A stretch of DNA of 64,000 nucleotides, taken from Escherichia coli (GTDB lineage: Bacteria > Pseudomonadota > Gammaproteobacteria > Enterobacterales > Enterobacteriaceae). This document shows positions 38,801 through 41,800 of this stretch, piece by piece. Where the stretch lies: assembly GCF_003018115.1 (NCBI RefSeq), contig NZ_CP027457.1. One strand, written 5' to 3'. The first letter of the stretch is position 1, and each line of letters starts with the position of its first letter. The translations under genes were made by a program, and so were the position numbers. The notes beneath the pieces were generated by a model, which did not search any database, was not told the origin of the DNA, and worked only from the letters and a program-made list of their open reading frames with translations.

Positions 38801-41800
38801 AGAGGTACACCATTGCCGTAAATATCATTCACCGTAATGTACAGAGTGGTATCCTCGCCTGCCAATTGTGTGTCATAAAGGGTATAAAGCGAGGTGAGAT
38901 GTGCCGTAGACGCATCAGCGTCGACTTGAATGGACGTGCTAAGCGTGGAGCTACCATTTTCCAGACTGGCCTCAACGGTATCCGGTCTCGCTCCTGATTC
39001 TATCGAGGAGCGGGTATTGGTATAAGTGACGGTAGCCTTACCCTGTTCGTTCGTTACGGCTTGGCCGCCATTCGTCATTTCGGCTGTCGCTGCGTTGCTG
39101 GTGAAGTTCACAGTCACACCTTTCACCGGAAAGCCATTATTATCAACGACTGTAGCGGTGATTACGCTACCGGTGCTGTTCTGTGGGGTACCGGCGATTA
39201 TGCTGCCTGGGTTAGGCGTCAACTCGATAATTTTTGCCGCCGTTGTGTCGCCAATAAAGTGCACAGTTTTGTTGTCGCTGGCACCAGTATTAGCCAGTGA
39301 TGCAGTAACAGTCTGCTCACCAAAGGCAACGCCTGCGAGAGTGGCCTGCGCGATGCCAGACTCATTGGTATTACTTTCCCCTGGGGTCAGGGTGAGGCCT
39401 GAAGAAGCTGTGCTGAATGTTACCGGAAGATTGTTCACCTCATTGTCGAACTGATCTTTGACCGTTGCAGTTAGCGTTGCGCTATCGACGCCATTACCTG
39501 TGATCTCATTTTTTGATATCTGAAGAACAACCAGAGCCGAGGTTTTGTCCGCCACAAACGTTACCGGCTGTGAATCACTGGTATTGTTATTACTCAGCGT
39601 TGCGGTAACCGTATGCGTACCCGCTTTTTTACCTTTGAGCGTGACATGCGCTTCCCCATTGGCCTGGGTGATGGCAATACCGTTATTTTCGAGGGTAAAG
39701 TTTGCCGCCACGTCCTGTGGCATGGTGAAATTCACCGTTATTCCCGCCACCGGATGATTCGACGGATCTTTCACCGTCGCCGTCAGCTGCACGCTGTCGC
39801 TGTTATTCGTCACCACCTGTTGAGCAGGGATGTTCAGCGTAACCTGCGCGTTGCTGGCATCGGGCGCAATATTGACTATCTTCGTATCGTTGTTGCCGTT
39901 AGGCAGTGTGGCTTCGGCTGTATGAACACCCAAAACCGTGCCCTTAAGGGTAACTTCAGCAACACCACTGTCGTTAGTATTGCTTGTGCTCTGACTAAGT
40001 TGAGTATCTGCCGGATTGGTACTGAAGGTGACTTGTAGATCTTTTACTGCATTATCAAAAGGATCTTTCACTGTTGCTGTCAGAGTCGTCTCATCCACGC
40101 CATTCCCAATGATTTCCGCTTTCGATGTTTGCAGAACGACAACTGCGCTGTCCTTATCTGCCACGAAGGTGACCGGTTGCGCATCGCTGGCATTATTGTT
40201 ACCCAGCGTTGCGGTAACCGTATGCGTGCCCGCTTTTTTGCCTTTGAGGGTGACATGCGCTTCGCCATTGGCCTGAGTGATGGCAATACCGTTATTTTCA
40301 AGGGTAAAGTTTGCCGCCACGTCCTGTGGCATAGTGAAGTTCACCGTTATTCCCGCCACCGGATGATTCGACGGATCTTTCACCGTCGCCGTCAGCTGCA
40401 CGCTGTCACTGTTATTCGTCACCACCTGTTGTGCAGGGATGTTCAGGGTGACCTGCGCGTTGCTGGCATCGGGCGCAATATTGACTATCTTCGTATCTCT
40501 GTTGCCGTTAAGCAGTATGGCTTCGGCTGTATGAACACCCAAAACCGTGCCTTTAAGGGTAACTTCAGCAATACCGTTCTCATTAGTATTACGCGCGTTC
40601 AGACTCAGTTGCGTGTCTGCGGGGGAGGTGCGGAAGACTACTGACAGATTTTTAACCACGTTATCAAAAGGATCTTTCACTGTTGCTGTCAGAGTTGTCT
40701 CATCCACGCCATTCCCAATGATTTCCGCTTTCGATGTTTGCAGAACGACAACCGCTCTGTCTTTATCCGCCACAAACGTCATTGGCTGTGTATCGCTGAC
40801 ATTGCTGTTAGCCAGACGAGCCGTGATCATATGCGTGCCCGCTAACGTGCCGGTCAGGGAGGCGATTGCAACCCCGTTACTATCCGTCATGCCTTTTCCG
40901 CCGTTGCTAATCGAGAACCGACTTGCGACGTCGTTTGGCACAGAGAAGGTGATTTCTTTATCTTTTAGTGGGTTGCCATTTTTATCCTGCAAGGTTGCAG
41001 TCATATATTGCGGAGCTGTGTTGGTGACGGTGATATCACCTGAAGGCACACTGAGGGTCAGGGCAGCAGTACTTTGATCACCAATAAAATTCACCTGTTG
41101 ATTGGCTTGGGAACCAGAGCTCACAGAGGCCGTAACCGTATAATCACCGTTTTTCAAACTGGTCAGCCTAGCTGTGGCGATCCCGTCGTGGCTATTCACT
41201 TCGGTTTGGCTCAGTTTCGCTGCTGCTGAATTGACATTGAAGGTGACCTTGACGTCATTGAGCAGGTTGCCTTTTGCATCCCGAACTGTCGCGGTCATTG
41301 TGGCACTGTCATTGCCGTCAGCGACCACTTCATTTTTCGACTTCTGCAGATCAACCTGCGCGGTACTCGAGTCGCCGACAAAACTGACGATTAACGTTTG
41401 TTTCACGCCATTTTCAAGGGTGACTTCAACCGTGTTGTCTTCCTGCTTACTACTTTTCAGATCAAAAGTCGCCAGACCATTAACATCCGTTTTTGCGGTG
41501 TTTTGATTGTTAAAGGAAGTTGCCGATCCGCTTAATACCGCAAACGTGACGGTATGATCATTGATTGGGTTGCTTCCTTCATCAGCGACATTGACCGAGA
41601 CGGTGTTTGCTGCATTCTCATTGGCGAGCACACCATTATTGCTGGCAGATAATGTCGCAATTTTCGCTGACTGCGGGTTGGCGTCGATGATAAATCCAGC
41701 GGTATGCAAATCTTCATTCCAGTTTTGCATTAACAGCTTCGCAGTAAGCCCACTGCCTTTGGTATAGGCGGTATAGGTTGCCTTATAGACGCCATCTGCG

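Follow-up and report, generated by a model that had tools for sequence, protein, structure and literature searches.

The window analysed here is a stretch of 64,000 nucleotides from Escherichia coli (contig NZ_CP027457.1), and all coordinates refer to it. The gene under study lies on the minus strand:

35896-43878, minus strand: yeeJ coding sequence, long (UMN026-type) allele, intact, 2660 aa (from the open reading frame and its translation).

The open reading frame spans 35896-43953, with the annotated-type ATG start at 43878. The product is an inverse autotransporter adhesin that comprises an IAT beta-barrel, an array of Big_1 domains (~16 or more) and, at its C-terminus, a putative lectin-like end. 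Residues 153-428 match the Pfam family IAT_beta (PF11924) with 375.7 bits (cutoff 22.3) and constitute the N-terminal beta-barrel, while the passenger is an Ig-like array that collects 842 bits for Big_1 in 16 stretches and 482 bits for Invasin_D3. At the C-terminus only a sub-threshold match to Invasin_D4 was found (22.7 bits, cutoff 27); the last 140 residues are, by eye, ~93% identical to those of K-12 YeeJ, whose C-terminus is assigned a lectin domain in the published work (PMC5595812). When the full protein was scanned with Pfam, no LysM family appeared at E <= 0.001. A LysM domain of YeeJ has experimental support according to the same work (PMC5595812), and in strain AHB21, where a long-type yeeJ is frameshifted, RefSeq names its N-terminal fragment 'LysM domain-containing protein'.

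The gene occupies its orthologous position, between a gene for a family-9 glycosyltransferase and tRNA-Asn/mtfA. It is 98.7% identical at the nucleotide level to the locus of strain GF3-3 over 8058 bp, with the same neighbours, and the flank that carries mtfA, hprRS, msrP and zinT is 99.7% identical. GF3-3, O55:H7 and EDL933 contain a coding sequence annotated as yeeJ or as an Ig-like protein that equals the window gene in length and synteny. The window yeeJ is the common long E. coli allele, of the class published in 2017, when the long UMN026 and the MG1655 variants were described (Martinez-Gil et al. 2017, Sci Rep 7:11326; PMC5595812). The UMN026 variant corresponds to the window allele in gene, locus and allele class, including an excess of exactly 906 bp over K-12. 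In that study, the long variant was present in 11 of 42 genomes and in about a third of the yeeJ-positive ECOR strains, and the 2358-aa and 2660-aa proteins were both surface-exposed and biofilm-promoting, with no functional difference in biofilm assays (PMC5595812).

The central part of the passenger contains two in-frame tandem units of 609 bp, arranged as A1-B1-A2-B2 over 40755-39538, each of which encodes one Big_1 domain of 99 aa and one of 104 aa (203 aa in total). The units and their flanking domains are as follows:

40756-41064, minus strand: B0, Big_1 domain on the upstream flank, aa 939-1041, with a sequence diverged from the repeat.
40147-40755, minus strand: unit 1, 609 bp, aa 1042-1244, consisting of A1 (40459-40755) and B1 (40147-40458).
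39538-40146, minus strand: unit 2, 609 bp, aa 1245-1447, consisting of A2 (39850-40146) and B2 (39538-39849).
39241-39537, minus strand: A3, downstream flanking Big_1 domain, an old relative of the A type, aa 1448-1546.

Both halves of unit 1 give full-length Big_1 matches (67 bits for A1 and 75 bits for B1). A preliminary description of this DNA had placed such a repeat, with two Big_1 modules per unit, at 39540-40750, in agreement with the boundaries found here. Its statement that the flanking repeats are clearly diverged also holds, as B0 shares only 54-56% of nucleotides and 41-42% of amino acids with B1 and B2, and A3 shares 58-59% of nucleotides with A1 and A2. When the gene was compared with itself at all in-frame offsets, the best 300-nt window, 95.7% identical, was obtained at offset 609; the second best, at offset 1218 and within the same family, reached 64%, all other offsets gave at most 56%, and the median was 34%. 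A separate repeat search recovered the 609 spacing as well. Tandem Repeats Finder reported no repeat in yeeJ because its period was limited to 500, and its result is uninformative for a 609-bp unit.

The two units are nevertheless less alike than the 'nearly identical' of that description. They agree at 540 of 609 positions (88.7%), and of the codons affected by the 69 differences, 35 differ synonymously and 20 non-synonymously. A1 and A2 are 87.2% identical in nucleotides; B1 and B2 are 90.1% identical in nucleotides and 96.2% in amino acids. The differences are unevenly distributed. Outside two short islands with ~65% identity, ~460 nt of each unit are ~96% identical, with a longest exact run of 68 nt. 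Each unit can accordingly be divided into four segments:

40661-40755 (unit 1) and 40052-40146 (unit 2), minus strand: homogenised head, unit nt 0-94, 95 nt.
40572-40660 (unit 1) and 39963-40051 (unit 2), minus strand: island 1, position-specific, unit nt 95-183.
40204-40571 (unit 1) and 39595-39962 (unit 2), minus strand: homogenised tract, unit nt 184-551, 368 nt.
40147-40203 (unit 1) and 39538-39594 (unit 2), minus strand: island 2, the tail of B1 in unit 1, unit nt 552-608.

In the window, the head differs at 2 of 95 positions and the tract at 17 of 368 (synonymous divergence, dS, of 0.159), compared with ~31 of 89 in island 1 and 19 of 57 in island 2. The islands keep this divergence across strains: island 1 has ~30 inter-unit differences in its 89 nt in every strain, against 0-12 between orthologs, and island 2 has ~18 in 57, against 0-5. 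A derivation of island 2 from the B0 tail through the duplication breakpoints was considered and rejected, all three tails being 67-74% alike; only the last ~20 nt of the B0 tail resemble the B1 tail (favouring B0 = B1).

The preliminary description had interpreted the repeat as a recent duplication, that is, a strain- or lineage-specific doubling of one 609-bp unit whose copies have barely diverged. The 95.7% identity of the best window, far beyond any other pair of domains, and the 96% protein identity of B1 and B2 are in line with this reading. The synonymous divergence between the units is, however, 0.35 overall and saturated in the islands, far from the near-zero value of fresh copies, and even the value of the best tract exceeds the 0.017-0.13 measured between orthologs of different E. 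coli strains. In addition, seven diverse alleles with two units (the window, GF3-3, O55:H7, EDL933, 0H24, T-HYM1 and 2024CK-00616) have 43 unit-specific diagnostic differences in common, and the two-unit architecture occurs, at 93-99% identity, in about 1,200 (1,215-1,276) of 5,426 complete E. coli genomes rather than in a single lineage. A very recent horizontal spread of one allele is contradicted by the 2-6% divergence among alleles. Because of the inter-unit dS, the shared diagnostic sites and the number of genomes with this architecture, the duplication is not recent, and we consider that earlier interpretation very improbable. Dated against present-day E. coli yeeJ alleles, the duplication appears to be older than their divergence.

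An even smaller probability is given to an assembly error that would have produced the second unit by doubling a single one. Nothing specific points to such an error, apart from the general tendency of repeats of this size to cause misassembly; reads of one unit placed twice cannot yield 69 differences, and the identical 8058-bp architecture is found in many independent complete genomes.

Tandem paralogs that evolve in concert through gene conversion are characterised by shared polymorphism with few fixed differences. Among six diverse alleles, no difference between the units is fixed in the 368-nt tract, where 24 polymorphisms are shared; the corresponding numbers for the 95-nt head are 0 and 3. 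In the tract, the distances between paralogs (11-29) match those between orthologs (0-29), and the sequences do not cluster by position. The islands show the opposite pattern, with 33 fixed differences and 1 shared polymorphism combined (19 and 0 in island 1, where dS is 1.86, and 14 and 1 in island 2). Within this sample of six alleles, the head and the tract thus bear the signature of concerted evolution, with 27 shared polymorphisms and no fixed difference, whereas conversion is incomplete over the unit as a whole, as two islands are fully unit-specific. These patterns suggest that exchange between the units continues, and that the 368-nt tract would be the main substrate for exchange and for unequal crossing-over. 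Gene conversion or unequal crossing-over would hold roughly three quarters of each unit (head and tract) ~96% alike, while the two islands of 89 and 57 nt would stay unit-specific and saturated at synonymous sites. The islands could be remnants of an ancient divergence that conversion did not erase, or they could have been imported.

The latter possibility leads to an alternative in which no exchange is ongoing: the duplication would be moderately old (dS of about 0.1-0.16), one unit would have received the two divergent patches by import, with a foreign allele or a paralog as donor, and the copy-number alleles described below would be rare one-off events. The sharply mosaic identity profile and the saturated divergence of the islands are what imported sequence would produce. 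Static paralogs with imported patches are not expected to display 24 shared polymorphisms without a fixed difference in the tract. By eye, moreover (similarity was not computed), the type-2 protein sequence of island 1 is nearer to A3 than that of type 1, which fits an old vertical divergence. We regard this alternative as improbable, also in view of the recurrence of copy-number changes.

The number of units varies between strains. It was counted from the length of the place and the number of pieces of the similarity matches, since counting by coverage is unreliable here because matches that overlap on the subject are joined; the one-unit allele of H66, for example, was scored as 100% covered. 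In the complete E. coli set, one-unit alleles (2457-2465 aa) occur in 48 genomes and three-unit alleles (2863-2871 aa) in at least 29, next to two-unit alleles of 2660-2666 aa. Departures from two units account for only ~6% of the alleles that are not of the K-12 type. A synthetic four-unit query gave no single-piece match of 3042 bp. Alleles thus differ by whole units, as in a VNTR-like locus, and their junctions are recombinant. The middle unit of F344, G1/2 and NCTC9038 combines type 2 in island 1 with type 1 in island 2, and AHM, C-SRM-3, E47 and FDAARGOS_1277 carry the exact reciprocal hybrid (type 1 followed by type 2). The crossover lies inside island 2 in VCSW7 and E700025, and in the homogenised head in N3, TR01 and ET5; in most one- and three-unit alleles it falls in the 368-nt tract. 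These classes fit the reciprocal products of unequal crossing-over, which, together with stalk-length variation, the preliminary description had proposed and which is thereby borne out at the population level. One-unit alleles were also considered as the ancestral state that preceded the duplication, and rejected, as their units mix type-1 with type-2 diagnostic sites. Some one-unit alleles in assemblies labelled complete could be collapse artefacts, and the 5' half of the TR01 gene is noisy.

Contractions and expansions each fall into three or more structural classes, which implies recurrent events and contradicts the one-off copy-number changes of the patch-import alternative. Under continuing exchange, out-of-register homologous recombination within the near-identical stretches, presumably RecA-dependent, would drop or add one 203-aa unit at a time. 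The low copy number, the 11% divergence between units and the maximal identity of 68 nt argue for low rates of change, in contrast to the frequent and reversible switching within a clone that characterises a contingency (phase-variable) locus. One- and three-unit alleles are not described in the literature searched, where no yeeJ length variant was found beyond the two of 2017.

The short K-12 allele has a separate origin. K-12 YeeJ has 2358 aa against 2660 aa in the window (genes of 7077 and 7983 nt), and the 302-aa difference corresponds to a single indel of exactly 906 nt at gene nt 3210-4115. Window gene nt 1-3209 and 4116-7983, when joined, rebuild the K-12 length of 7077 nt with 96.1% identity, and K-12 yeeJ aligns at 94-98% on either side of the indel. 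The elements of the junction are:

39764-40669, minus strand: segment absent from K-12-type yeeJ, 906 bp (the rest of A1, B1, A2 and the start of B2), with a position ambiguous by 11 nt.
40670-40680, minus strand: GTGAAAGATCC, upstream copy of an 11-nt microhomology, in A1, from the alignment of the K-12 junction.
40373-40383 (B1), 40061-40071 (A2) and 39764-39774 (B2, the downstream partner), minus strand: the other copies of GTGAAAGATCC.

The four copies are spaced by 297, 312 and 297 nt, and one is kept in K-12. KV7 and ecMN1F contain a junction identical to that of K-12. A single 906-bp deletion between the GTGAAAGATCC copies at the equivalent structural position of A1 and B2 would account for this arrangement; it would have taken out three domains and left one domain that is chimeric and complete, and the chimeric K-12 domain indeed still gives a full Big_1 match of 78 bits. 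Since the K-12-type gene lacks the 906 bp through a deletion between 11-nt microhomologies, the K-12 form is the derived one. The sizes of the two proteins had been given correctly in the preliminary description, which attributed the difference to the 609-bp duplication instead of to a 906-bp deletion. No description of the deletion junction was found in the literature searched. The 2017 paper presents two length variants only; in the passages considered, the 609-bp A-B unit is not resolved, and neither the long-to-short direction and its 11-nt microhomology, nor the chimeric domain of K-12, nor alleles with one or three units are mentioned (PMC5595812). We consider it highly probable that long yeeJ carries an old two-unit duplication with ongoing exchange and unequal crossing-over between the units, and that the K-12 form arose separately by a microhomology deletion.

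A related case is the inverse autotransporter gene yrIlm of Yersinia ruckeri, with almost identical tandem Ig-like domains (Wrobel et al. 2018, cited in PMC6714894), whose repeats the citing article links to the evolution of length and to misassembly (PMC6714894). The repeats of yrIlm are many near-identical single domains, whereas yeeJ has two (range one to three) two-domain units that are 11% different. Recombination-driven length variation is also known from other tandem-repeat adhesins, such as E. coli UpaH, staphylococcal SasG/Aap and Bap, streptococcal alpha C protein and Candida Als, in which many highly identical repeats vary frequently, sometimes within a clone, and copy number alters the projection of the distal binding domain. 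yeeJ resembles them in its in-frame, domain-sized stalk repeats, in the change of copy number by homologous recombination and in the difficulty of assembly, and differs from them in its low copy number and the divergence of its units.

In YeeJ, a change in unit number would likely alter the reach of the putative C-terminal lectin-like head from the outer membrane in a stepwise manner. The invasin rod measures ~18 nm for five domains, and by analogy each YeeJ domain may add roughly 4 nm to the stalk. It is conceivable, though rather unlikely, that the two-domain block serves as a slow, recombination-driven 'length dial', with stalk length selected to match O-antigen or capsule thickness or the host niche. 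The steps would then be -302, -203, 0 and +203 aa, separate functions of the first and the second unit would be what keeps the two islands unconverted, and the benefit of a shorter stalk in some backgrounds would explain the spread of the K-12-type deletion. The K-12-type short allele is found in more than half of the yeeJ-positive genomes. This high frequency and the recurrence of events do not tell selection apart from drift and hitch-hiking.

The yeeJ repeat opens no new mechanism or class, and the main value of the analysis is a correction: the repeat is old and published, and the laboratory K-12 protein is the derived form, left with a chimeric Ig domain by a deletion. The point is relevant to those who use K-12 YeeJ as a reference or as a surface-display scaffold. 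The one to three units, the reciprocal crossovers, the partial concerted evolution and the 11-nt junction are a modest addition to what is known of stalk length in inverse autotransporters.

The preliminary description had also warned of collapse in short-read assemblies. For the window allele, collapse by 150-nt reads is not expected because the longest identical run is only 68 nt; the warning applies better to three-unit alleles, which are at greater risk because adjacent units share identical runs of 91-425 nt. A protein query with the repeat region (608 aa) yielded only fragments among the matches listed, none longer than 1035 aa. Many 'partial' YeeJ fragments of draft genomes end inside the repeat, at aa 1167-1317, which may hint at an assembly effect. 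The diagnostic sites that separate the units can serve both for the typing of yeeJ alleles and for the flagging of misassemblies.

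The repeat lies within a single long open frame on the minus strand (35896-43953) that contains yeeJ, the gene of an inverse-autotransporter adhesin. Translation from the ATG at 43878, chosen as the start because it matches the equivalent RefSeq genes, yields 2660 amino acids with no internal stops. Pfam identified an inverse-autotransporter beta-barrel at residues 153-428 (375.7 bits) and a Big_1/invasin-D3 array of 16 stretches (842 bits). The full 8058 bp are 98.7% identical to the gene at the yeeJ position of E. coli GF3-3, the adjoining 8 kb are 99.7% identical to that strain, and the neighbours are the same in both (a family-9 glycosyltransferase gene, tRNA-Asn and mtfA). 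This identity and the shared neighbours assign the gene to yeeJ. The frame is open for 25 codons 5' of the ATG, up to a TTG at 43953 (43879-43953, minus strand); equivalent RefSeq alleles start at ATG (MATKKRSGEE...). Plus-strand frames of 141-176 aa run antisense to yeeJ in or beside the repeat (39613-40038, 40129-40644 and 40547-41077) and are probably fortuitous, open by chance in a GC-rich coding sequence.

Splitting the protein at its domain boundaries gives the following order, in which A (99 aa) and B (104 aa) each constitute one complete Big_1 domain.

Big_1 domains in and around the repeat
41064-40756, minus strand, B0, upstream flanking domain
40755-40459, minus strand, A1, unit 1
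40458-40147, minus strand, B1, unit 1
40146-39850, minus strand, A2, unit 2
39849-39538, minus strand, B2, unit 2
39537-39241, minus strand, A3, downstream flanking domain

The preliminary description had placed two 609-bp units here, and A1-B1 and A2-B2 coincide with them almost to the base. Self-identity at offset 609 is elevated across approximately 39436-40215, and a repeat search returned three 300-nt copies with spacings of 609 and 609 nt; Tandem Repeats Finder, with a period limit of 500, below 609, called no repeat. In a scan of all in-frame offsets of yeeJ, the best 300-nt window at offset 609 reached 95.7%, followed by offset 1218 at 64%, with the rest at or below 56% and a median of 34%. 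Nucleotide identity is 87.2% for A1-A2 and 90.1% for B1-B2, and does not exceed 59% for any other domain pair. The 609-bp repeat is thus real and a clear outlier within yeeJ. To call the units nearly identical was nevertheless too strong, as they match at 540 of 609 positions (88.7%, 69 differences). The differences cluster in island 1 (unit nt 95-183, approximately 31 of 89) and island 2 (nt 552-608, 19 of 57); outside the two islands, in the head (nt 0-94) and the tract (nt 184-551), the units are approximately 96% identical, with a longest exact run of 68 nt.

The proposal of a recent duplication is contradicted by the divergence between units. By the Nei-Gojobori method, dS between them is 0.35 over the whole unit (dN 0.062), with 0.087 in the head, 0.159 in the 368-nt tract, 1.86 in island 1 and saturation in island 2, while ortholog dS between the window yeeJ and five other strains is 0.017-0.13. 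Seven two-unit alleles were compared (the window allele, GF3-3, O55:H7 RM12579, EDL933, 0H24, T-HYM1 and 2024CK-00616), with identities to the window of 93.5-98.7%. Unit 1 is told from unit 2 by 43 diagnostic sites, each of which holds in six or more of these alleles; 27 of the sites lie in island 1 and 14 in island 2. The 906-bp segment with the repeat was found in 1,276 of 5,426 complete genomes (1,215 with related queries). The excess of unit dS over ortholog dS, the common diagnostic sites and the genome counts together indicate that the two-unit state is widespread and old relative to E. coli allele diversity. The tail of B0 was tried as the origin of island 2, and failed.

The regions of the unit behave differently in a polymorphism test on six diverse two-unit alleles.

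Fixed differences between units and shared polymorphisms in six two-unit alleles
Head: 0 fixed, 3 shared
Island 1: 19 fixed, 0 shared
Tract (368 nt): 0 fixed, 24 shared
Island 2: 14 fixed, 1 shared

Tract distances are 11-29 between units within a strain and 0-29 between orthologous units across strains, and no clustering of tract variants by unit position was seen among two-unit alleles. Shared polymorphisms in tract and head, together with this lack of clustering, point to exchange between units; paralogs that undergo gene conversion or unequal exchange typically show this pattern, which here is confined to the regions outside the islands. Both this exchange and changes of ±609 bp would depend on RecA, with homologous recombination taking place in the nearly identical sequence of head and tract.

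Alleles with other copy numbers were found as outliers of the 906-bp-segment search, namely a 2465-aa gene (AHM21C2872I) and a 2870-aa gene (F344), which respectively lack and gain exactly 609 bp relative to the window allele. A one-unit query gave 48 complete genomes in which one full-length match of 1215 bp was the only match (100% to 92.1% identity). A three-unit query gave at least 29 genomes with a single-piece 2433-bp match (100% to 95.3%), which is a minimum, since two-unit alleles were interspersed among the ranked matches; no four-unit allele was found with a synthetic four-unit query.

Observed or annotated YeeJ protein lengths
K-12 type: 2358 aa
One unit: 2457-2465 aa
Two units: 2660-2666 aa
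Three units: 2863-2871 aa

Units were painted by the 43 diagnostic sites, type 1 and type 2 denoting island sequence typical of the first and second unit. The middle unit of F344, G1/2 and NCTC9038 combines a type-2 island 1 with a type-1 island 2, and the single unit of AHM21C2872I, C-SRM-3, E47 and FDAARGOS_1277 is the reciprocal, type 1 then type 2. By their island types, these two structures are exactly the products expected when a two-unit parent undergoes unequal crossover in the tract. Crossovers also map within island 2 (VCSW7, three units; E700025, one unit) and in or near the head (N3, three units; TR01 and ET5, one unit, all type 2); in N3, units 1 and 2 are both type 1 and only 9 sites apart. 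Expansions and contractions each fall into three or more structural classes, so the events are recurrent, and the two-unit form can yield every class of one- or three-unit allele. Ongoing unequal crossing-over and length variation, as first suggested, therefore hold at the population level, given the shared polymorphisms and reciprocal recombinant alleles. One-unit alleles were also considered as the pre-duplication ancestor, which is ruled out by the hybrid nature of their units. E. coli O157:H7 TR01 (NZ_CP033605.1) has one unit versus two in EDL933; the 3' 4.1 kb are identical and the 5' 3.8 kb are 96.0% identical (140 mismatches, 10 gap openings), so that TR01 is either poorly assembled or the product of inter-allelic recombination with a breakpoint inside the repeat. 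Assembly collapse could account for a few of the one-unit alleles in "complete" genomes.

The shorter K-12 protein had been attributed to the duplication, which is wrong in both mechanism and direction. K-12 yeeJ (7077 nt) aligns to nt 1-3209 and 4093-7983 of the window gene, with a gap of 906 bp, not 609 bp; in the protein, one K-12 domain consists of residues 1-29 of A1 followed by the final 75 of B2. The two parts meet at the 11-nt GTGAAAGATCC, retained once in K-12 and present in the window in direct orientation, one copy per repeat domain.

Copies of GTGAAAGATCC in the window
40670-40680, in A1
40373-40383, in B1
40061-40071, in A2
39764-39774, in B2

Their spacing is 297, 312 and 297 nt, so that the first and fourth copies lie 906 nt apart. 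The motif LTATVKDP occupies residues 22-29 in A- and B-type domains alike, which places the chimera in structural register; it gives a full Big_1 profile match (78 bits). The change ran from long to short, because nothing in a short allele could regenerate the lost A-tail and B-head sequences, and the 906 bp were probably lost by microhomology-mediated deletion or slippage. The divergent short allele of KV7, which shows 38 differences from K-12 over its first 3.1 kb, has a junction identical to that of K-12, and SMS-3-5 yeeJ has the K-12 length of 7,077 bp; both are consistent with a single deletion origin. Roughly 1,630-1,700 genomes carry the K-12 type or disrupted derivatives (2,910-2,915 with any match minus 1,215-1,276 with the 906-bp segment). 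In-frame microhomology deletions of 297, 312 and 609 bp are possible in principle from the spacing; none of these products was seen in the alleles examined, only that of 906 bp.

Martinez-Gil et al. 2017 (PMC5595812) already described two yeeJ variants a 906-bp fragment apart, with the long form in 11 of 42 genomes and no difference between long and short forms in biofilm assays. The window allele is their long variant, and the core of the finding is therefore already known: the feature exists, was placed correctly and is ordinary, being the published long yeeJ allele. The parts of the literature searched yielded no description of the 609-bp A-B unit, its variation between one and three copies, partial concerted evolution of the units or the K-12 microhomology junction.

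Collapse in short-read assemblies, also raised initially, is not expected for the window allele, whose longest identical run of 68 nt should let 150-nt reads resolve the two copies. Three-unit alleles, in which neighbouring units share exact stretches of 91-425 nt, are at greater risk. Many "partial" YeeJ proteins of draft genomes start or stop within aa 1167-1317, which fits contig breaks in the repeat without proving them. A 221-bp draft scaffold of Corynebacterium striatum ATCC 6940 (NZ_GG667598.1) encodes a peptide that matches a stretch of the yeeJ repeat region at 100% identity and is almost certainly E. coli contamination.

Among complete genomes yeeJ is often inactivated, for example by an internal stop in O55:H7 RM12579 and by frameshifts in AHB21, NCTC9038, E47, FDAARGOS_1277 and SL112; in O157:H7, Z1615 has an IS3-family insertion adjoining the repeat. 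A remnant of approximately 2.4 kb (30% of the gene) is all that is present in 15 of 40 evenly sampled matches, e.g. UTI89, 536 and NRG 857C, or roughly two-fifths of 5,200 matching records.

The two Ig domains of each unit would add roughly 8 nm to the rod-like stalk, by comparison with the invasin rod, and an extra unit would place the C-terminal lectin-like domain at a greater distance from the membrane. In AHM21C2872I, F344 and 2024CK-00616, the C-terminal ~130 aa are strongly diverged (35896-36280, the yeeJ 3' end); DNA alignment to the window ends at gene nt ~7598-7645, and the proteins end in ...VVCYKKS or ...VACYKNI versus ...ATCYKNL. It resembles an alternative cassette encoding the lectin-like head domain and does not track repeat copy number.
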